64,000 nucleotides of DNA from Leptospiraceae bacterium (GTDB lineage Bacteria > Spirochaetota > Leptospiria > Leptospirales > Leptonemataceae): positions 160,001-224,000 of the forward strand of contig JAVJNR010000002.1 in assembly GCA_040217195.1 (NCBI GenBank). Reading direction: 5' to 3'. A program made the position numbers and the translations under genes. Positions 31,677 through 59,108 of this stretch are shown in pieces (within the stretch, counting starts at the first letter, position 1; every line of letters starts with the position of its first letter). Under the pieces are notes generated by a model, which had not been told where the DNA came from, searched no databases, and worked only from the letters and a program-made list of their open reading frames with translations.

Positions 31677-31858
31677 CTGGATACAGGGTTAAGAAAGCAA
31701 AGCAATACCTGGAATTGCAAGAGATACCGGTCATAGAAGTAGAGGCCGGAGTTGGCCCTTTATTAAAAACCCTGGTACGTTTCAAAATCATTGGCCGTCT
31801 ATTCATCATAAGATTACTATGTGAATCTGCAGTATTCTGAACGCAGCGCAAGAGTGTC

Positions 31859-34273
31859 ATGGAACCAATGGTTAGGTACAGTGCTACGAGGCCGTCCCCC
31901 CGGATTCTGGTAGTTGAAGATGATCCGGTGGTGGCACTGGACATCAAAAAGAAGCTTGAGTCGCTGGGTTACTCCATCGCAGGGATCAGTGAAACCGGTC
32001 CTTCAGCCCTGGAGAGTATGGATCGAGCCATTCCAGATCTTGTGGTCATGGATGTGCGCCTCCGAGGTGATATGGATGGCATTGATACAGCGCTCATAGT
32101 TCAAAAAGATTACAGCGTCCCCGTTGTTTATGTTACCGGCCAGTCGGATCCTGGTACATTAGATCGCATTCAGAGTAGTCATCCATTTGGTTTCTTGCTC
32201 AAGCCCTTTGAGGCCCGGGAACTGGATACAGTGATTCGGATTGCTCTGAATCGGCATCACCTGGAACAGGATCTTTCAGCCAGCGAATTCAGAAATCGAC
32301 TCTTATTTGAACTGGCATCGGATGGAATCTTGATCGCGGACCAAACCGGCGTGGTGAAACGAGCCAATGGCCGAATTTCCGATCTTACAGGCCTGCCTAA
32401 AACCGAATTGCTGGGTAAGTTCTTCTGGGAGCCTTTTGAAGTGGATACTGAATCTCTGGCAGTGGATCGAGGAAAAGTACGATTCGTGGAAACCGTACAT
32501 CGGCCAGCCCGGGGAGCTCCCACACCTGTAGAGTTATCCATCTCCGTACTGCCTGGAAGAATGATTCAAGTACTGGTTCGGGATTTGAGAAATCAAAAGA
32601 AAGGCCAGGAGCAGATGCAACTTCTGGCTCGAGTCTTTGATAGCATAGTGGAAGGTGTTTTTGTTTCGGATCGAGATAGGAATCTTATAACTGGAAACCG
32701 TGCCTTTATGGCAATCAGCGGCTATGAACTGTCCGAACTTCAGGGAAAAAACGTTTCCGTATTTCGCTCCGAACAGCATTCCCGATCATTCTATAGTAAT
32801 CTCTGGAGGGACCTGGAGCATCAGGGTAAATGGGAAGGTGAACTGATCATTCGAAAGAAAAGCGGCGAAGAGGAGGAGCAGTGGGCCTCTCTTTCTGCGA
32901 TCCGAGATGATAACGGGCAGATTTCTCACTTTGTAGGAATCTTCATCGATCTTACGGAGCGAAAGCGGTATGAGGATAGACTGTATTATCTGGCTCATCA
33001 TGATTCTTTAACAGATCTACCCAATCGATCATTGTTTGCTCAAAGGCTGGATCGAGCGTTGAACCAGGCTCAAAGATCGGGGCAGCGATTTGCTCTGTTT
33101 TTTCTGGATCTGGACAAATTCAAGCGGATCAATGACACCTATGGTCATGAGGCCGGGGATCGACTACTGTGCGAAACTGCGGATCGACTTCGAAGAACTC
33201 TGCGAAAAGGTGATACGGTTTCAAGGTTCGGAGGAGATGAATTCAATATTCTGGTAGAAGATATCCGAGAGCTAGAGGATGTGAGCGTTGTAGCGGAAAA
33301 GGTGATAAAATCACTGGAAGAGCCCATGGCTTTCGAAGGCAAACATCATCGAATATCTCCGAGTATTGGAATTTCCATATATCCAGAGGATGGACTTACC
33401 GCAGAAGAGCTACTGCGGTCCGCGGATCGAAGCATGTACAGAGCCAAAGGAGATGGCGGAGATAGTTATCGCTTCGCAAGCAAGAAGCTCAATCTTCGTT
33501 CTCTAGAAAGGGAGTTGTTGTATTCAGGCCTGGAGCATGGCCTGGAAGCCGGGCAATTCATCGTTCGGTACAATCCAATCCTTAGTGTATCTGAAAAGCG
33601 TTGTATTGCCGCCCAGGTGGGTCTTTACTGGAACCATCCTGAGCTGGGCCTTCTTTCATCCAGTCGGTTTCAAAAGGTTATTGAGGACTCATCCATAGCT
33701 GGAAACTTCAATCGGTATACAATTGAAAAAATGCTTATCGATGTTGAGCAGTGGGATCTGGAATCCGAAGCATATCCCCTTTTATTAGTGTCATCCAGTT
33801 CGGCCTGCATACATCCGGAAGCCATGATGGAGCTTCTCGAAAGCTCCGCGCTTCAGCCCCGGAATATGCAACATGTTGCCCTGGAAATGGAGGAACGGGA
33901 GCTTCGAGAAATGACAGATACACATCCAGATTACCTACAGTTACTGGAACAAAGAAGCATGACGGTTGCAGTTCGCGATCCGGGCACAGGCTATTTAAGT
34001 CTGCAGGAATTGAATCGGTTGCCCCTATCCATGCTAAAAGCTGGAGCGGAGAGAGTGCATCGTATGGATGAAAATCCGCTGGAAAGGTCTGTGTTTCAAA
34101 TCACAGCCGGTATGGCCCATACTCTGAAGGTGCCGCTGGTAGCTGAAGGAGTGCATTCTGGAGCTATGCTTTCATTGCTCGAGGAGCTGGATTGTGATGC
34201 CTACCAGGGTTCCTTAACAGGGCCACCGTTGAGCGGCCCGGATTTCCATTCACAGCTATTGAACCAGGGTTAA
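31859..34273 (+). CDS. REC-PAS-PAS-GGDEF-degenerate EAL diguanylate cyclase
   Basis: VVEDD..MD receiver; HDSLTDLPNR, FKRINDTYGH, RKGD I-site, GGDEF; EAL motifs altered. Confidence 0.92.
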   Translation: MEPMVRYSATRPSPRILVVEDDPVVALDIKKKLESLGYSIAGISETGPSALESMDRAIPDLVVMDVRLRGDMDGIDTALIVQKDYSVPVVYVTGQSDPGTLDRIQSSHPFGFLLKPFEARELDTVIRIALNRHHLEQDLSASEFRNRLLFELASDGILIADQTGVVKRANGRISDLTGLPKTELLGKFFWEPFEVDTESLAVDRGKVRFVETVHRPARGAPTPVELSISVLPGRMIQVLVRDLRNQKKGQEQMQLLARVFDSIVEGVFVSDRDRNLITGNRAFMAISGYELSELQGKNVSVFRSEQHSRSFYSNLWRDLEHQGKWEGELIIRKKSGEEEEQWASLSAIRDDNGQISHFVGIFIDLTERKRYEDRLYYLAHHDSLTDLPNRSLFAQRLDRALNQAQRSGQRFALFFLDLDKFKRINDTYGHEAGDRLLCETADRLRRTLRKGDTVSRFGGDEFNILVEDIRELEDVSVVAEKVIKSLEEPMAFEGKHHRISPSIGISIYPEDGLTAEELLRSADRSMYRAKGDGGDSYRFASKKLNLRSLERELLYSGLEHGLEAGQFIVRYNPILSVSEKRCIAAQVGLYWNHPELGLLSSSRFQKVIEDSSIAGNFNRYTIEKMLIDVEQWDLESEAYPLLLVSSSSACIHPEAMMELLESSALQPRNMQHVALEMEERELREMTDTHPDYLQLLEQRSMTVAVRDPGTGYLSLQELNRLPLSMLKAGAERVHRMDENPLERSVFQITAGMAHTLKVPLVAEGVHSGAMLSLLEELDCDAYQGSLTGPPLSGPDFHSQLLNQG

Positions 34274-35857: not shown

Positions 35858-35939
35858 TACGTCTTCGGACGTAATAAAAAAGAACGGTGGCTAAGCCCAA
35901 GGGATTAGTCACCAAAAGAATGGGTGAAAACCCAGGAGG
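35858..35939 (+). promoter_or_regulatory. Structured 5' leader of the lipase gene (three hairpins plus SD)
   Basis: TACGTC-TTCG-GACGTA; GGTGGCTAA..TTAGTCACC; TGGGT-GAAA-ACCCA abutting AGGAGG. Confidence 0.6.
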
Positions 35940-35948
35940 AGTGTTTAT

Positions 35949-36881
35949 ATGAAGAAGCTGGCGTTCAAGCTAGCCTGTTTTGCTGTGCTCTCTCTGGTTC
36001 CTGCTGGCCTGATGGCTGGTGGAGGATCTTCAGAGAAGCCACTTGCAGGAAGCTATCCTATCGTGCTATCGCACGGACTATTCGGATGGGGGGATTCTGA
36101 TTCTCCCGGTGTAATCAGCATTGTGGAATACTGGGGTGGTATGGATGACTACCTGCGCGGAGAAGGTGTGGCCGTTTATGCGCCCACTAAAACTGCTACT
36201 CAATCCAATGAGTATCGCGCACAAGAGCTAAAGAATAAGATTAACTACTGGATGGCTGCTAATGGCTATTCCAAGGTTCATATCCTGGGCCACTCCCAGG
36301 GCGGTCTGGATAGCCGATACATGGTGTCCAACCTTGGTATGGCCTCCAAGATCTCTTCACTAACTACCTTGAATACTCCGCATCGCGGAAGTCCCATCGC
36401 AGACATTACAAATTCTGTAATTCCTGATTGGCTTAAGCCAAGCGTTGGAGCTGTTCTAGGCGTTATCACTGACATCGTATATGGTGGCGGCGAGCAAGAT
36501 GCTCTGGCTGCTCTGGATTCTCTGACCAAAAGCGGACTGGCAGTGTTCAATCAAAACACACCTAACCGTTCCGGAGTTGATTATTTCTCTTATGGTTCCA
36601 ACATCACAATTACTGATATAGTGCAGCACCCACTGATGGGAATTCTACATCCTATTTGTGGTCTGGGCGGAACTTTCAACGGACAGGGCTTCAAGAATGA
36701 TGGTCTGGTTCCAGATTCTTCTCAAAAATGGGGAACCTGGAAAGGTGGACCAAGCTATTCCTGGTATGTAACTGGTGTAGACCACCTTCAGGCTTCCAAC
36801 ACTCTGTACAGCGGAGAGCTGTGGTATGATGTTGAGGCTTATTATCTGAAGATGGCAAAAAACGCCAAAAACAGCCAGTAA
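35949..36881 (+). CDS. Secreted triacylglycerol lipase (family I-like alpha/beta hydrolase)
   Basis: YPIVLSHGLFG, GHSQGG nucleophile, TPHRGS, NDGLV, DHL; signal peptide. Confidence 0.93.
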   Translation: MKKLAFKLACFAVLSLVPAGLMAGGGSSEKPLAGSYPIVLSHGLFGWGDSDSPGVISIVEYWGGMDDYLRGEGVAVYAPTKTATQSNEYRAQELKNKINYWMAANGYSKVHILGHSQGGLDSRYMVSNLGMASKISSLTTLNTPHRGSPIADITNSVIPDWLKPSVGAVLGVITDIVYGGGEQDALAALDSLTKSGLAVFNQNTPNRSGVDYFSYGSNITITDIVQHPLMGILHPICGLGGTFNGQGFKNDGLVPDSSQKWGTWKGGPSYSWYVTGVDHLQASNTLYSGELWYDVEAYYLKMAKNAKNSQ

Positions 36882-36889
36882 GCAGAGCC

Positions 36890-36925
36890 AAAGCCGGGTC
36901 GCTATCGTTGCGGCTCGGCTTTTTT
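36890..36925 (+). terminator. Intrinsic terminator after the lipase gene
   Basis: AAAGCCGGGTCGC/GCGGCTCGGCTTT stem plus U tract. Confidence 0.82.
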
Positions 36926-37013
36926 GTTGCCCGATTCCGCTCCGCTCTTTAAGAAAGGTCCAAACAGATTCTGCTCACAGATCTGACCGATTCCATTTGA
37001 AGTAAGATTAATT

Positions 37014-38048
37014 ATGAAAAACAAGACCCCGTTATTTTTGATTGGTGGCATTCTATTCGTTCTTGTGGTTGTGCTTTTTTATGTCATGCAGCCAGGAGGC
37101 GATTACTCAGAAGCCCCGGACCTGGAAGCTATAGACCAGGAAGAGCAAGCTCTATTGAACAACATGTCCGATGAGGAACGTTCTCGCCTTAAGGATGAAG
37201 CACTGCTAATGTTTGATCAACCCGGATATCTAACATTTGAAGAAATTATGGCCGGAGCCAGGAATGGTAAAGTGAAGCTTGTAAGTGAGCTATGGAAGCT
37301 CCGTCGACGTTGTCCTCCTGAATTAAGCCCGGAAGAATGTAATCTGCGAATTAAGATCTTCCTTCGAGAAAAATTTCAACCTGGTGGAGAAAAGCTGGCT
37401 CGATTGTTTGCCTACTATGTGCGATATGAAGGCCATATGCGCTCCGAAAAGCCGCCCGAGGGTCTGAGTCCTGAGGAGCAATACGAATGGATTAAAGGCC
37501 AGCGCCGGAAGGTAATGGGCGAAGAGGCTGCAAGTCTGATCTATGGCTACGAAGAGGCTCGTGTTGATTTCCGTGGAAAATTCCAGGAGTTCATGGATGA
37601 CACGAAAGGACTGTCAGCCGATGAGCGAATCAAGAAATACGAGCAGTTTAGAAGAGATCATTACGGCAATTACTACGAAACGATAAAGGAGCGGGAGCCC
37701 AAATTCAATACTTACGATGTGGAAATGACCCTGCGCGAAGAGCAACTTTCAGGGATGAATTCTTCGGAGCGAGATGCAAAGGTTCGGGAAATGAGAGTCT
37801 CTTATTTCGGTGAAGAAGCCGCCAGGAGAATGGAGGCTGTGGATCAAGAGATTCAAGAAGACCAGGAACGGAAGGATGCATACCAGGATGCCAAAGCCAA
37901 GCTTCTGGAGGCCAACCCATCCGCAAGTCCTGCAGAGCGCGAATCCATGCTAGCTCAACTGAGAAAAGAATACTTTAGCGCTGAAGAAGCGGAGGCCATG
38001 GCAAGGCGCGAAAAGATGCGGCAGGAAATGGATCAGTTAAAAGAATAG
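37014..38048 (+). CDS. Lipase secretion chaperone (foldase, Lif-like)
   Basis: N-terminal membrane anchor, helical charged body, YVRYE, FGEEAARRM, LRKEYFS; follows the lipase. Confidence 0.8.
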   Translation: MKNKTPLFLIGGILFVLVVVLFYVMQPGGDYSEAPDLEAIDQEEQALLNNMSDEERSRLKDEALLMFDQPGYLTFEEIMAGARNGKVKLVSELWKLRRRCPPELSPEECNLRIKIFLREKFQPGGEKLARLFAYYVRYEGHMRSEKPPEGLSPEEQYEWIKGQRRKVMGEEAASLIYGYEEARVDFRGKFQEFMDDTKGLSADERIKKYEQFRRDHYGNYYETIKEREPKFNTYDVEMTLREEQLSGMNSSERDAKVREMRVSYFGEEAARRMEAVDQEIQEDQERKDAYQDAKAKLLEANPSASPAERESMLAQLRKEYFSAEEAEAMARREKMRQEMDQLKE

Positions 38049-53512: not shown

Positions 53513-54403
53513 CTACTCTTTTTTCTCAGAGTGTCGGAAAAGGGCAAGAAAAAGATTTCCGACGAATATCAAGCTCGCACCAATTGCTCCGGATAGTCCT
53601 GGAATCTCCTGTAATAGAAAGAAACCGGCCACAAGGGCAATTGGTATACGTAGACTGGAAACTATGCTGCCTGCTGTAGCTGACAAATAGGCGTAGGATC
53701 TGGTTAAAGACCATTGGCCTGCCACTCCCAGGCAGGCCGATGCGAGCACAAATAGACCTCCTGGATGCAACATTTGCTCCAGGGATGAATAGGCCAGAGG
53801 GAGGCTGGCAACGGTGCCAAGAGCAAACATCCATAAGAGAATTTCCTCAGACCTGGCCTGCATGGCGGCGCCTCGTAGCGAAAGAATGGCTATGGCTGCA
53901 AGTAAGCCTGAACCAATGCCCCAGAGATCCGGTTTTGAAATATTGCCCGTTTCGTATAAAGGATAGAATACATACAGACCAATCCCTCCTAAGCTGAAGG
54001 CAAGTACCACCAGCATTCGCCGATCAGGAATTTCCCGGAAGATGGGAATCGCAAACAGAGCCACAAAGGCCGGATAGGTCATATTTAAAACATTAGCTGT
54101 GCCAGCTGGGCCCGTTGCTACTGCCTCATAGAAAAATAGCAATGCAAGAGTATTGAAGATGGCTCTTAGATAGACAGGTACTGGAACTTTCCATCGAAAG
54201 GGTAGACCTGCTCTGCGAAACAAGTAGATTGAGAAAAAAAATCCAAGCAAATAGCGGACAAAGGCGAATAACTCAGAAGCCAGTGCTTCATCGTATAGCG
54301 CTCCCAGACGCACAAAGAAGGTAGCAAAGTAAAAACTCAGAGCGCTGAATGCATTAAGTAGAATACCGTAGAGTTGTCGCCGATGGTAAATGGATTGACT
54401 CAT
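53513..54403 (-). CDS. DMT/EamA family transporter
   Basis: About ten transmembrane helices in two repeats; TYPAFVALFAIPIFRE. Confidence 0.88.
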   Translation of the reverse strand: MSQSIYHRRQLYGILLNAFSALSFYFATFFVRLGALYDEALASELFAFVRYLLGFFFSIYLFRRAGLPFRWKVPVPVYLRAIFNTLALLFFYEAVATGPAGTANVLNMTYPAFVALFAIPIFREIPDRRMLVVLAFSLGGIGLYVFYPLYETGNISKPDLWGIGSGLLAAIAILSLRGAAMQARSEEILLWMFALGTVASLPLAYSSLEQMLHPGGLFVLASACLGVAGQWSLTRSYAYLSATAGSIVSSLRIPIALVAGFFLLQEIPGLSGAIGASLIFVGNLFLALFRHSEKKE

Positions 54404-54431
54404 GATCGCTCCGAGACGAACAGGAAGAATC

Positions 54432-55148
54432 ATGGCGATTCTGAAGGTAAGCATTTTTCAAAAGAATCTCACCGAAGGCCTGAATCTATCCCTGCATAAG
54501 AAGCTTGCGGCTCTCAAATCTGACTTTCTGGTTTTTCCGGAATACTTTGCTGTTGATGGCTCCATAAAAGATCATAAGTCCCTGGCGGATCGGACAAAGT
54601 TTGCTCTGGACTGGCTCGGTAAGCTCAGTGAGGCCTATAAAGGCGTAGTTATAGGTGGAACGGTTATTCGTGAGGTGGAAGGCCAGTATTTCAATGCAAT
54701 GCCGGTTTTCTTCGAGGGGCAGCTGGTGGACTGGTATCATAAACGATTTCTCACAGAGAATGAATCGCCAGTGCTGACTCAGGGTCAGGATCCAGGCATT
54801 TTTATCCTGGGCGGACATCGGTTTGGAGTACTGATTTGCGCCGATGTGCTGAAGCCTGAGTACGTAACAGAGCTGGCGCAACAGGATGTTCGATTGATTT
54901 TTACAGTCATGAATTCGCCCTATAAAGAAGAATCCAGCGATGAGAAGCATGCCAGAGATGAAAAGCTTTACTGCGGTCCGGCCCGAGAACAGGGGCTGAC
55001 CATTATTAAATGCTGCTCCACCGGAACAATATTTGGCAGACGATTGCAAGGACGTTCGCTGGCAGTAACGCCATCTGGCATTAGCTGGAGAGTGGCCCCG
55101 GATGAAGAAGATCGGGAGATACTCAAGACCGTTGTTCTAAATGCCTAG
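54432..55148 (+). CDS. Carbon-nitrogen hydrolase (nitrilase superfamily)
   Basis: FPEY, YHK, LICAD (E-K-C triad). Confidence 0.88.
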   Translation: MAILKVSIFQKNLTEGLNLSLHKKLAALKSDFLVFPEYFAVDGSIKDHKSLADRTKFALDWLGKLSEAYKGVVIGGTVIREVEGQYFNAMPVFFEGQLVDWYHKRFLTENESPVLTQGQDPGIFILGGHRFGVLICADVLKPEYVTELAQQDVRLIFTVMNSPYKEESSDEKHARDEKLYCGPAREQGLTIIKCCSTGTIFGRRLQGRSLAVTPSGISWRVAPDEEDREILKTVVLNA

Positions 55149-55243
55149 GCGAATTAACTGAATCCATGGATCCGCTTCCTGGTTAGCTTTACCAGTATCC
55201 TCGTTTAGCTGGGGCCTCCCACCATTTCTCTGGAGGCGGATCT

Positions 55244-56176
55244 CTAATGTCCGAAGAGAACTCGGTTCAATCTGGAAAAAAATCGCGAAAGATAATAATG
55301 GGTCATTCCGGCCATTCTCTTATGTAATCCGGCTTTGAATTCGAATACTGCTTCTGCCACTGCCGGAAAATCCGGTAATCGCTCACTCGATTTTAGAATC
55401 ATCAAACCAATCAAATCCAGAATTTCCTCATAGCTGCGATCCAACTGTGTTTTCCAGTCCTGAAAATTCTTTTCCAGAGATGCATAGATTTCCAGTTCAT
55501 GAAGGCCCATTGGATGTCCCAGACCATCTTCAATTTTCTCTTTCAATCGTATGAAGCTATCGTCCAGAATAACGCTTGAAAGCTCCAGGCTACCTCCCAT
55601 CAGATCCAGAATGAACTGATCTGATTGGCCGGTAATCTCTGACATAGTATTGCCAGGAATTAAATGGAAGGGAATGCAGACCCCTCGGCTGATGATCGTT
55701 TCTTTTAGTAATTCCAGATCTTCAACGAGCAGCACAAAGCGGCTATGCTCCGGTGGTTCCTCCAGGGTCTTTAGAAGGGCCGTTTCTGCCTCATTTTGGA
55801 TCAAGTCGGCCCGTGGAATGAGTATATATCGCTGGGCTGCCTTGAAAGGTGGATACATTAATCGAGTGCGTATTAGCCATCGGACGGTGAAAGGAGCCGG
55901 CTGTTTTTCATCCCCAATCAGGATTTTCTCTTCAGGAAATAGAATGTAATCGGGATGTTCCTGGCGGCTGAACAGTCGACAGGATGGGCATTGACCGCAT
56001 CCGTTACCGGTTTCGCATAAAGCGCATTGAATAAACCATTCGGCAGCGCTGAATTTCCCCACCCCAGCCGGGCCATGAAGTATAAGCAGTGGCGGCGCCG
56101 GATGTCCTATGTAATGATCCAGCATGGACCGGGCAATACTCTGACCTTTTAATTGAAAGCCCATAGTGCCAACCAC
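55244..56176 (-). CDS. holB: DNA polymerase III delta' subunit
   Basis: GPAGVGK, C..CGQCPSC, HPD, ALLKTLEEPP, TIISR. Confidence 0.88.
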   Translation of the reverse strand: MVGTMGFQLKGQSIARSMLDHYIGHPAPPLLILHGPAGVGKFSAAEWFIQCALCETGNGCGQCPSCRLFSRQEHPDYILFPEEKILIGDEKQPAPFTVRWLIRTRLMYPPFKAAQRYILIPRADLIQNEAETALLKTLEEPPEHSRFVLLVEDLELLKETIISRGVCIPFHLIPGNTMSEITGQSDQFILDLMGGSLELSSVILDDSFIRLKEKIEDGLGHPMGLHELEIYASLEKNFQDWKTQLDRSYEEILDLIGLMILKSSERLPDFPAVAEAVFEFKAGLHKRMAGMTHYYLSRFFSRLNRVLFGH

Positions 56177-56217
56177 TGAGAAGCGGCGGTCTGTGCAATT
56201 CTTACAAAAAGTGCTGG

Positions 56218-56373
56218 AAAAAGAAAAAACCCGGCCTCCTCATTCGAAGGGCCGGGCTGCATCTGAACACACTCTTTCCCGATCTGTCGCCGACTTTTCA
56301 TCGGCGCGGATACTCGCTCGAAGCGAGTAATGAGTGAAAGGATACCTTTTAATCTCCCCCTTAAAAGAATCCG
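56218..56373 (-). ncRNA. Candidate structured small RNA of about 155 nt ending in an intrinsic terminator
   Basis: Hairpins at 56372-56340, 56329-56311, 56306-56288; terminator CCCGGCC/GGCCGGG (56256-56230) plus U tract; no family recognised. Confidence 0.6.
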
Positions 56374-56383
56374 ACTATACTAT

Positions 56384-56399
56384 TGCAGGCGGCGTACCA
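56384..56399 (-). promoter_or_regulatory. Candidate sigma54 -24/-12 promoter
   Basis: TGGTACGCCGCCTGCA (GG-N10-GC); predicted +1 near 56373 at the base of the first hairpin. Confidence 0.6.
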
Positions 56400-56880
56400 G
56401 GGAGGGCTCGGACCGGAAAAAAATGCTCATCAAGACCTGTGGCAGAGAAAAAAAAGTGCCTTTTTGCTGATTTTCCGCATCCACGCATGGTACAGCCATT
56501 CGCAGGGGCACTTTACGTCTAGAAGTCTGGTCCTGCGGCTGCCCACTCGGTGTAGCTTTACGCCGGATCCCCGGGGGGTGCACAAAATATAGCTGCCATC
56601 CTTTGCTACATGGCTTTATTGTAAGCCAAGCACAATAAATGGTCAGAATTACTGCCCGGAGAAAAGTCCCTTCCTTCTCGAGGAGAAATTCCCCTGGCAG
56701 ATGTGGGTTTCCCGGTTTCTATTCCCTGCCTCATTCTTTCGTCAATTCGCCATTCTCTCAATAATTTGGCCTGGTCCGGAGTTGATGGGCCCATTGGATG
56801 GAAAATCGATGGATCCTGAACGGACCGGTAGGGCCAGAACCATTAACTGGATGAAAAGAAAGCCAGCTCAAGGAATCTAT

Positions 56881-56908
56881 TTGACCGAAAGGGTGATACA
56901 ATTAGATT
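56881..56908 (+). promoter_or_regulatory. sigma70-like promoter
   Basis: TTGACC-N16-TAGATT, 7 nt before ATG 56916; no SD. Confidence 0.5.
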
Positions 56909-56915
56909 CCGCTTC

Positions 56916-57515
56916 ATGCGAAAACATAGATTCCTTGCGGTGGTTGCCATTCTGGCCATTTGTTCGGCGACTTACTGCAAGTCCGGTGACGAAGAGCCAT
57001 CCGATGATCAAGAGCTATTGAATCTTCTGGATGTAAATGTGGCTAATGGGATATTCTGGGTGGGCAAGACCAGTCAGAATAGCTGCAATGCGGGGGATGC
57101 ATCCACCACAGCAACCGTATGCTTTACTCAAACGACTCTGGAAAATACTTATCTTTCCGGAAATGAAAATAACCTGAACCTTTATTTGCCATCCGGAAAT
57201 CCGCCGGCGGGAACTGTCAGTCTTTTGATTCCGCACCCGGACAATTCTTCGCTCAATACATTCGATATTGCAGTGAGTGGAGATCTTTCCGGGGGGTATG
57301 AGACCGGAAACGGAGTGAGTCGGGTGCTAACACTGACTGCGGCTACAGCCACCACTGCCGCAAGTTCTTCAGTGCAGATTCAAATGGTGAGTTTTACAGC
57401 TCAGCAAACGGAGAATTCGGTAGATGGCACCATCGTAGTGCGATTTCTGAGAGCCAGCGGCAGCAATCCAACCTATGACGTTGAATATAACTTCTCTCTG
57501 GACAGGCAGTACTGA
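56916..57515 (+). CDS. Putative surface lipoprotein, Ser/Thr/Asn-rich and beta-rich
   Basis: MRKHRFLAVVAILAICSATYC spirochaetal-type lipobox; stop overlaps the next ATG. Confidence 0.72.
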   Translation: MRKHRFLAVVAILAICSATYCKSGDEEPSDDQELLNLLDVNVANGIFWVGKTSQNSCNAGDASTTATVCFTQTTLENTYLSGNENNLNLYLPSGNPPAGTVSLLIPHPDNSSLNTFDIAVSGDLSGGYETGNGVSRVLTLTAATATTAASSSVQIQMVSFTAQQTENSVDGTIVVRFLRASGSNPTYDVEYNFSLDRQY

Positions 57516-58945
57516 TGAAGGGGGAACAAGGAATGAAAAACATGCGAAAAACAAAGGTACTGGCAATCCTTCTTACTTTTTGTCTGAGCGCGCCTGTATT
57601 CGGCGAAGCTGATCCTACCGGTTGGGCACTGCAACCCCTTCCTCTGGTAAGCGCAAGTTCCGATGATGGATTTGGCTATGGTCTGCGGGTTTACGGAACG
57701 TATAAGGATGCGAAAGCTGAACCTTATAAGTACCAGATCTACGGACAATACTATGCCACTACCCGAGGGTACGAATTTCATGAATTATCCGTTGATGCAG
57801 TGGATTTTCTTGATTCATCTTTTCGAATCATTACTCGTCTGGGTGTAGAAAGAACTCTCAATGCTCAGTGGTACGGAACGGGAAACTTTCAGGATATTCA
57901 GAGACAAAAGAAGATCAAGAATGGCGAGATCCCGATCAATGAAAACGTGCAGGTAGATCCAACTACCGGTCAGCCAATTCGTGATCTCTACACTTTTGAA
58001 GAGTATAGCGACTCGGTTTATTCATTGAACACAAGAGCGTTGCTGGGTCCCGGAGCAGGCGATTTTCTTAATCCCGGCCGAAAGCTGCTAAAGCAAACTC
58101 AGGGAAAATACTTCTATTATGACCGGATTCGTCCATTTGTCATGATGTCTACTGAGCAATGGATGGGAGATACAAACTTCAAGTGGTTTGTGGGTATTCG
58201 CGGTCAGAGCTATAAGATTCAATCCTACGCCGGCGACTTTGAAGGAGGGGACAAGCTTCCTAACGGTCGAACTCTAATCGATATTGAAAAGCCCCTGGGC
58301 TATGATGCCACCGAAGATAACAAGTTCGTAAATGGACTTCGGGGTGCATTGATCTATGATTCAAGACCCAGAAAGCGGGAGATCAATCCTAATTCAGGTA
58401 TCTTCGCCGATATTCATATCGAAGGAGTGGGCAAAGGCACGGGAAGTAACTATTCCTTCATGAGATATACGGCCGCCTGGAGACAGTACATTGAAGTGCT
58501 ACCCGGTTTCTTCAATCCTCAGGACCGAGAGCTAGTTTTCGCATATCGTGTTCTTGGACAGAAAACCACCGGAGATGTTCCGTTTTATGAGATGGGCCGA
58601 ATCTACACTTCCCGAGAGAACGCAGAGGGTCTGGGTGGAAATGGAGGCCTGAGAGGGTATCCGGCCAACCAGTTTGTGGATCGAGTCATGGGTATGGCAA
58701 ACTTTGAAATGCGTCTGACAACGTTTAGCGTCGATGCGCTGGGCGGCATTGACTTCATTTTCCTGGGCTACTATGACGTGGGACGAGTGGCTCCCACTAA
58801 CCGGGAAATGACTTTGAAGGGCCTGCACCGAGCCTACGGTGGTGGCGTTCGATTACTATGGCAGGAAAACGTTGTGATCAACATTTCCTACGGCCGATCT
58901 CAGTATGAATCCAACTTCAATTTTGGATTTAATCATATGTTCTAG
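57515..58945 (+). CDS. Omp85-family outer-membrane protein lacking POTRA domains
   Basis: Signal peptide then PLPLVSASSDDGFGYG, YDSR, LRGYPANQF, YDVGRV, C-terminal FNHMF. Confidence 0.88.
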   Translation: MKGEQGMKNMRKTKVLAILLTFCLSAPVFGEADPTGWALQPLPLVSASSDDGFGYGLRVYGTYKDAKAEPYKYQIYGQYYATTRGYEFHELSVDAVDFLDSSFRIITRLGVERTLNAQWYGTGNFQDIQRQKKIKNGEIPINENVQVDPTTGQPIRDLYTFEEYSDSVYSLNTRALLGPGAGDFLNPGRKLLKQTQGKYFYYDRIRPFVMMSTEQWMGDTNFKWFVGIRGQSYKIQSYAGDFEGGDKLPNGRTLIDIEKPLGYDATEDNKFVNGLRGALIYDSRPRKREINPNSGIFADIHIEGVGKGTGSNYSFMRYTAAWRQYIEVLPGFFNPQDRELVFAYRVLGQKTTGDVPFYEMGRIYTSRENAEGLGGNGGLRGYPANQFVDRVMGMANFEMRLTTFSVDALGGIDFIFLGYYDVGRVAPTNREMTLKGLHRAYGGGVRLLWQENVVINISYGRSQYESNFNFGFNHMF

Positions 58946-58973
58946 GCTGAAATTCTCAGCTTGAACTTAGAGG

Positions 58974-58998
58974 AAAGGGGGCTTCGGTCCCCTTTTTT
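58974..58998 (+). terminator. Intrinsic terminator
   Basis: AAAGGGGGC-TTCG-GTCCCCTTT plus T tract. Confidence 0.85.
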
Positions 58999-59108
58999 CG
59001 TTTCTGGCAGAAATCACTCCAGGTTCGGCCTCAAATCATCTTGAAAACCGGTGAAGCCATGAACTACTTGGGCAGAAACTCCATCTAATCCCACAGAAAA
59101 GGTCTAAT

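Follow-up and report, generated by a model that had tools for sequence, protein, structure and literature searches.

A sigma54-type small RNA upstream of holB in a Leptospiraceae bacterium and its candidate role as a sponge for a second small RNA

The small RNA and its transcript

In the window (the whole 64,000-nucleotide stretch of DNA analyzed here), the minus strand upstream of holB carries a sigma54-type promoter, a structured small RNA with its own terminator, and, farther upstream, short box-like elements. The features of the locus are as follows.

55244..56164, minus strand: holB, DNA polymerase III delta-prime, the downstream neighbor (PF13177; start from the gene call)
56222..56373, minus strand: small RNA, ~150 nt (fold, RNA contigs, conservation)
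56222..56258, minus strand: intrinsic terminator with U tract (fold; consensus pairs)
56259..56281, minus strand: family-conserved site complementary to the seed of a partner sRNA, a candidate target mimic (alignment, read by eye)
56290..56336, minus strand: CACUC strand and hairpins 2 and 3, a genus-specific body (fold; absent in other genera)
56340..56372, minus strand: hairpin 1, with a G-rich loop at 56360-56353 (fold)
56384..56400, minus strand: sigma54 -24/-12 promoter CTGGTACGCCGCCTGCA, with GG-N10-GC spacing (pattern match and conservation)
56579..56595, minus strand: proximal enhancer half-site TTTTGTGCA (TTGTGC invariant in 6/6 genus rows)
56612..56627, minus strand: second imperfect palindrome, GGCTTA-N4-AAAGCC, between the boxes (by eye)
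56629..56645, minus strand: distal enhancer-like box, a degenerate TGCAC-N7-GTGCA with 3 mismatches, 272 nt before +1 (genus-conserved block)
56916..57515, plus strand: lipoprotein-like ORF of 199 aa, divergently oriented (without a match in Pfam or NCBIfam)

An earlier note on this DNA had proposed a self-contained small RNA with an RpoN-type promoter, no convincing ORF, and no known family, and this core of its description is borne out. The box at 56400-56384 is the sole match to the sigma54 pattern with 0 mismatches in the whole window, which confirms the GG-N10-GC reading, and with up to 1 mismatch the window holds 4 matches versus 0.61 expected by chance. RpoN and CsrA, both invoked by the note, are encoded in the genome, together with 8 enhancer-binding proteins. 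The 152 nt of 56373-56222 fold at −62 kcal/mol (z = −4.24; 1 of 200 shuffles equally good), and hairpins 1 to 3, the CACUC/GAGUG helix, and the terminator are present in both the MFE and the centroid structures. The three hairpins and the terminator had thus been called correctly; the enclosing helix, which the note had regarded as possible, forms in this fold but is lost when flanks are added (z = −2.26). The CACUC strand can pair with the GAGUG core of the RNA, partly hiding the core. The only internal ATG is disrupted by an indel in genome G001, which argues against a small ORF. A search of 54000-59000 with the Rfam 15 covariance models gave 4 weak matches only, all far below the gathering score, so that no family reached it, those of SRP, 6S, tmRNA, RNase P, riboswitches, CsrB/RsmZ, and CrcZ included; ARAGORN found only a tRNA-Phe in the window, and the small RNA is a single-copy element in its own genome.

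Public RNA runs were found by a search with 55900-56900, which returned 8 runs, and contigs from 4 of these were compared with the window. Metatranscriptome contigs X2 and X3, both from one sample, and X4, from a different study, are each 154 to 155 nt long, extend from 56372 to 56223-56225, and align without loose ends; they differ from the window by 6 letters and so come from a relative, and they show no coverage elsewhere in 55200-57500. Their 5′ end agrees with the start predicted at ~56373 and lies ~12 nt downstream of the sigma54 box, as for a sigma54 promoter, contig ends being a weak guide. Contig X1 is identical to the window (56323-56183), has adapter at both ends and a depth of 3.7, and extends ~40 nt beyond the terminator; it is one adapter-flanked fragment and may be DNA. 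Because strand and true ends cannot be read from contigs and the same stretch served to pick the runs, we regard them as a good hint and not as a map. Nevertheless, the contig ends coincide with the predicted ends and the box is kept in most relatives, and the small RNA exists as a discrete, conserved, and terminated transcript. Its dependence on sigma54 is predicted from the promoter.

Conservation and upstream boxes

The small RNA is 87 to 93% conserved in five of six same-genus genomes, with diverging flanks, and the sixth genome (78% complete) has no holB match either. Promoter and RNA are therefore kept in relatives, and 5′ of the sigma54 box the genus alignment shows no conservation save in two short blocks. 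The covariation that the earlier note had suggested looking for is seen only in part: none of the 53 predicted pairs covaries within the genus, where sequences are too similar and changes fall mostly in loops, but four of the five consensus pairs of the terminator change on both sides across 17 aligned family homologs.

Homologs were gathered from holB-upstream DNA and by pattern searches, and within the limits of those patterns they occur in 25 of 42 family genomes and 12 of 21 genera, related genomes in all such counts being kin and not independent. Three loci (L061, L063, and L121) were excluded as two chance matches and one mRNA leader. The sigma54 box is kept in 6/6 genus homologs and in homologs from 10 other genera, and upstream palindromic enhancer boxes are usual. 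Homolog bodies range from ~60 nt (four g4 genomes, lacking the sigma54 box) to ~230 nt (G011, an A-rich RNA with repeated sites and several GGA). What the homologs share is the promoter, the terminator, and between them the motif GG(A/U)AGAGUG, after which UUCA or AUGC often comes; a G-run at the 5′ end is frequent, and an A-run is usual. Among the 17 aligned homologs, GAG-G is invariant and the motif is unpaired in the family consensus, and the body varies freely. In this alignment, conservation is strongest in the stretch GGAAAGAGUG preceding the terminator; it is a helix arm in the fold, as the earlier note had it, but the note saw nothing more in this family-conserved region. Long homologs with repeated sites occur in G011, G016, and G047, and very A-rich multirepeat homologs occur in G011, G022, and G047; locus L184 has 2 strict site copies, equaled by 7 of 200 shuffles. 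An Rfam search of eight homolog loci gave no match. The host lineage is not Leptospira proper, and coding sequence nearly reaches holB in all 10 Leptospiraceae-level genomes examined. Matches to a promoter-plus-seed pattern in 81 of 131 genomes were set aside as mostly due to chance. A Leptospira homolog in genus g20 (19 of 21 genomes match) was rejected too, as the two loci read are promoters of a gene whose start resembles glutamine synthetase. In this sister-family genus (L208, L209, etc.), a conserved box-plus-sigma54 promoter lies before a glutamine synthetase-like gene.

Taken alone, the distal box in the window's own genome is unremarkable (P = 0.69; 61 own sites), and the two upstream blocks are conserved in place across the genus. 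In several other genera the palindrome between the boxes reads GATTA-N4-TAATC (by eye). TGCAC-N7-GTGCA, which we take to be an NtrC-type box, occurs with at most 2 mismatches 150 to 315 nt upstream in 10 of 10 nongenus homologs with the promoter and in 0 of 4 without it, box counts exceeding those of shuffles in only 4 of 20 cases.

The rpoN operon encodes an NtrX/NtrC-like response regulator next to a kinase for which the LIC_11548 family is the best match, below cutoff; another enhancer-binding protein is a double-GAF, EbpA-like protein. By comparison with the available part of PMC12655853, the rpoN operon regulator is likely the counterpart of EbpB, for which that part names no confirmed target gene; saprophytic Leptospira are described there as encoding EbpA only. 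EbpB-like proteins were found in 118 of 131 genomes and were missed in four strong-box genomes, in which 12 of 69 to 158 candidates were scored. For one of the sigma54 activators of the order, the small RNA is a candidate output. In genus g22, EbpB-like proteins (49 to 62% identity) are present in 36/36 genomes.

Family glnA promoters often have sigma54 sites, and a nitrogen starvation sRNA under the glnA activator was considered and rejected, as only 4 of 30 family glnA promoters carry the box with at most 2 mismatches. In the glnA upstream regions (L150 to L179), a different palindrome, TGCYT-N7-ARGCA, recurs by eye 5′ of sigma54-like sites, so a link to nitrogen is not established. The genome has four Amt genes in all, and two of these ammonium transporters (G000:C1:202323-204392 and C10:725280-727667) are fusions, one to an adenylate/guanylate cyclase domain and the other to an MCP signaling domain.

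A partner small RNA and candidate targets

The motif GG(A/U)AGAGUG is found in the same sense in the leaders of lipase- or hydrolase-like genes in G048, G049, and G012 and, in part, in G019, whose protein has no Pfam match. The box-plus-sigma54 promoter itself drives such genes in G012, G019, G048 (two genes), and G049. The complement of the motif was unenriched, with no outstanding duplex, among 3895 predicted start regions of the window's own genome (G000), and the leaders of 30 glnA genes contained no complementary site. A search of this genome for the motif itself led, through an intergenic site at C1:316325-316339, to the following locus.

G000:C1:~316294-316374 (L230:1495-1575), plus strand: candidate partner sRNA, ~80 nt (comparative sequence)

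In the candidate partner, a sigma70-like promoter precedes an unpaired seed (UUUUCGCAUGAACACUCUUCCU) and a G-C terminator (loop AUUCCCC) with its U tract; the fold z score is −3.09. CGCAUGAACACUC is invariant in the partner alignment, and the 5′ part diverges. A same-sense 13-mer pattern occurs in 33 of 42 family genomes (9 hits in 8 genomes for the control), and read on the opposite strand, 26 of 28 rows show an intergenic unit of promoter, seed, and terminator; rows L242 and L248 were excluded as partners. With 6 more genomes and 2 variants, the partner was found in 34 of 42 family genomes; 14 looser 13-mer matches, none with a common leader context, were dismissed as chance. Neither 2 partner loci nor 5 loci obtained in searching for the partner matched Rfam. 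When all species genomes were scanned for the partner, 39 stretches came up, most of them from leptospiral or spirochaete MAGs; the partner seed is also carried by a Leptonema sp. record (L337). The exact partner 15-mer occurs in 1 of 401 phylum genomes (G000 itself, in a sample containing no other family members) and in 0 of 75 sister-family genomes, and a plasmid collection gave weak chance matches only. Near-identical partner loci are found in two genera (L285 in G011 and L287 in G019), and the short G019 contig with L287 may be bin contamination. Just 5′ of the −35 box (L230:~1430-1445), an enhancer half-site-like TTTTTGTGCA is kept in 6/6 genus genomes, and through it the sigma54 activator may also act on the partner. 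Expression of the partner, as an ~80-nt RNA from the terminator strand, is predicted from these elements.

As read from the aligned sequences, GG(A/U)AGAGUG is the reverse complement of the near-invariant partner seed, which makes the small RNA a noncoding RNA complementary to the seed of a predicted regulatory sRNA. All duplexes were read by eye. Within the RNA's own genus, 56281-56259 and the partner seed could form 18 bp with three bulges, the core being occludable by the CACUC strand; the gapped core of the site has 1 match in the window, compared with 0.01 expected by chance. Gap-free complementarity reaches 13 nt in G018, and 14 to 15 nt in three g4 genomes (extending into the partner's terminator arm); in G044 it spans 15 nt, into that arm (0 of 200 shuffles). 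In genus g10, the match is interrupted by a central loop. In G052, a seed reading UAAAC accompanies a site reading GUUUA, compared with UGAAC and GUUCA elsewhere, the one clear case of a seed change matched in trans. The base next to the seed (after UUCCU) is Watson-Crick paired in six of nine genera and unmatched in g17, g8, and g24, and an A-run makes A:U matches cheap.

A second contact is suggested by the loops. Between the G-rich loop of hairpin 1 and the C-rich loop of the partner's terminator, 6 to 7 bp could form in g1, g2, g10, and g17; where the C-run of the partner loop is lost or shorter (G013 and G021), the G-run is absent or paired. The G-run is also missing in G018 and G047, though their partner loops keep the C-run, so a loop-loop kissing contact is only plausible; C-rich partner loops occur as well in genomes in which no homolog was found. 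Pairing of the G-rich loop with a C-rich RNA, as the earlier note suggested, thus stands as plausible, but with a second sRNA as the likely partner and with GGAAAGAGUG as the conserved core. Of the 25 genomes in which the sigma54-type RNA was found, 23 also yielded the partner, and the two misses are in genomes 89% and 54% complete. The six other genomes in which the partner was not found yielded no homolog, and pattern-limited searches detected no sigma54-type RNA in 11 genomes with the partner.

The partner seed is complementary to a Shine-Dalgarno sequence plus AUG. Lipases having been seen in other genera, the lipase gene in the window was looked at, and the candidate target features are as follows.

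31850..31861, plus strand: weaker candidate site that overlaps the start codon of 31859-34273, a REC-PAS-GGDEF-EAL gene (by eye)
35933..35948, plus strand: candidate partner site, the lipase ribosome-binding site (RBS), 16 nt with 2 differences, both G-U compatible
35949-36881, plus strand: lipase gene (Pfam)
37014-38048, plus strand: lipase chaperone gene, proteobacterial type, PF03280 (Pfam)

The lipase RBS is the best match to the partner seed in the window (0.05 expected by chance); shuffles gave a match in 5 of 100 cases at up to 2 mismatches and in 54 of 100 at up to 3. Both close homologs (93 to 95% protein identity) retain the first 12 nt of this site and differ in the upstream leader, and more distant lipase leaders have partial sites in only ~4 of 15 cases; the leader alignment covers 17 of 21 loci, the remaining 4 having no leader. 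The leader of a second lipase homolog in the same genome contains 9 + 4 nt of the motif, and shorter sites lie at the starts of two secreted-protein genes and of the GGDEF/EAL gene. A fourth site was rejected, as it lies inside coding sequence. An anti-Shine-Dalgarno seed of this kind matches many purine-rich stretches in part. The pairing of a lipase gene with a proteobacterial-type lipase chaperone gene (35949-38048) was observed here in a spirochete.

Two hfq genes are encoded in the genome (G000:C4:62031-62276 and C4:435310-435561, the second below the NCBIfam cutoff). An hfq gene was found in 40 of 42 family genomes and 119 of 121 order genomes. A second copy is present in most genomes of the family, and nearly all of the sister family have a single one. 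An Hfq-like gene is also described in Leptospira interrogans in the available part of PMC5243855. With hfq in the genome and an intrinsic terminator with a U tail, the small RNA has features of an Hfq-dependent sRNA, and its binding to Hfq is predicted.

Proposed mechanism and alternative explanations

We propose, with a probability of about 0.7, that the small RNA is a sigma54-induced sponge that mimics an RBS and start codon and so may free mRNAs, including those of lipases, from the partner sRNA. By default, the partner would repress translation of a set of mRNAs. On a signal, an enhancer-binding protein bound at the upstream boxes would activate sigma54 polymerase, yielding the ~150-nt terminated RNA, whose purine-rich site, a copy of an RBS and AUG, would pair with the partner seed; the G-rich loop of hairpin 1 may, more tentatively, add a kissing contact with the C-rich partner loop. 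The partner would then be sequestered or degraded, probably with Hfq, and the blocked mRNAs, secreted lipases presumably among them, would be translated. As the same box-plus-sigma54 promoter lies on lipase-like genes in other genera, this would give a coherent feed-forward loop, and the physiology is plausibly one of lipid scavenging under nutrient shortage. These are two undescribed RNA families, and the proposal offers a testable mechanism for them in a phylum where the function of few sRNAs is known. Whereas sponges usually come to light through interaction sequencing, the sRNA, its candidate sponge, and a likely target could be read here from comparative sequence.

Several known systems offer points of comparison. 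CrfA of Caulobacter crescentus is, like the small RNA, a stand-alone inducible RNA, and it pairs with a conserved element of the constitutive Hfq sRNAs SisA to SisD, releasing alternative-nutrient genes (PMC12559287, available part). CrfA acts on four siblings, whereas a single partner is proposed here, and the main text of that paper does not use the term “RpoN,” in contrast to the sigma54-type promoter and enhancer-like boxes at this locus. Unlike in CrfA, the site here copies a Shine-Dalgarno sequence and AUG, and the comparison involves no demonstrated sequence relation to CrfA. In the available part of PMC13501541, QrrX of Vibrio, SroC with GcvB, and the chb sponge of ChiX likewise cancel a repressor sRNA by sRNA-sRNA pairing, although SroC and the chb sponge, unlike the small RNA, derive from mRNAs. 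A LysR regulator controls QrrX, whose sponged Qrr RNAs are sigma54 driven (same source), whereas here the promoter of the candidate sponge is of the sigma54 type. No report of this sponge and partner pair and no sigma54-driven pairing sponge were found in the literature searched, which excluded most subscription papers. By analogy, the proposed action would resemble that of CrfA, QrrX, or SroC and the regulatory logic that of CbrB-CrcZ.

A bolder version of this model, which we consider possible but doubtful, is a family-wide circuit of three parts: a near-invariant sRNA, a sigma54 sponge that holds it at two points, and one activator shared by the sponge and the lipases that possibly also damps the partner. 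In such a circuit, the sRNA would block the Shine-Dalgarno sequence and AUG of lipid-scavenging and other mRNAs in free-living spirochetes, and the sponge would grip it at the seed and the terminator loop. If true, this would be a catabolite derepression switch like CbrB-CrcZ, with RNA-RNA pairing replacing protein titration.

The alternative that survives best, although we consider it unlikely, is that the small RNA is an ordinary Hfq-dependent sRNA whose purine-rich seed targets pyrimidine-rich mRNAs, its match to the second RNA being secondary or the second RNA itself being the sponge. Its layout, with the seed before the terminator, the A-run, and the U tail, would fit this explanation, as would the presence of Hfq. 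NrsZ, GlnZ, and NfiR, the NtrC/sigma54 nitrogen sRNAs, also have a sigma54 promoter and NtrC-type boxes, like those predicted here, and in the descriptions available they pair with mRNAs, whereas the pairing proposed here is with an sRNA. The start regions and glnA leaders surveyed above, in which the complement is unenriched or absent, argue against mRNA targets. Moreover, the site tolerates bulges and substitutions where the partner seed is near invariant, which is the pattern expected of a mimic.

CrcZ of Pseudomonas is under the control of CbrB and sigma54. Like the proposed sponge, it relieves translational repression of catabolic mRNAs, and it does so by titrating the protein Hfq (PMC13501541, available part), whereas the small RNA has exact complementarity to another RNA and no Rfam match. 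A decoy of this type, in which A-rich repeated purine motifs titrate Hfq or the second Hfq off mRNA leaders, seems somewhat less probable still. It would account for the sigma54 promoter with NtrC-type boxes, for the A-rich multirepeat homologs in G011, G022, and G047, which are the point of likeness to CrcZ, for the same-sense motif in mRNA leaders, and for the two Hfq genes of most family genomes. It leaves unexplained the 13 to 15 nt of exact complementarity and the matched change in G052, and the RNA in the window is structured and without a long A-run. Sponge and protein decoy mechanisms could coexist.

Three further explanations appear very improbable. A gene for CsrA beside fliW is the arrangement of a protein-antagonized CsrA. 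In this genome csrA lies directly after fliW, which speaks against a CsrA-sequestering RNA of the CsrB/RsmZ type; the gene is present and the G011 homolog has several GGA, but the window RNA has one GGA, in the hairpin 1 loop, where several would be expected, conservation is centered on GAGUG, and several homologs read GGUAG, so that the CsrA binding raised by the earlier note is not upheld. Equally improbable is that the partner is in fact the RBS and start of a gene on the opposite strand that encodes a small protein, with the shared motif a common protein-binding site: in the window's own genome, the motif on that strand is a Shine-Dalgarno sequence plus ATG in an open frame, but across genera the sequence after ATG-CG diverges with indels and a promoter-like element and U-tailed terminator are kept on the other strand.

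The idea that the small RNA is a holB leader or attenuator acting by conditional read-through, an alternative offered by the earlier note, fares no better. In most cases the homolog directly precedes holB and shares its orientation, and X1 passes the terminator; however, homologs also lie 1.6 kb (G050) and ~2.7 kb (G013) from holB, at other loci in G055, G016, G011, and G047, and as a second copy in G054, and these seven copies away from holB argue against attenuation. Many holB genes have no such RNA, and no conserved antiterminator, alternative fold, or leader peptide was seen. We consider holB to be probably outside the mechanism. A TTGC ~35 nt before the holB ATG (56200-56164, minus strand) recurs in the genus, and holB may have its own promoter with a very short leader.
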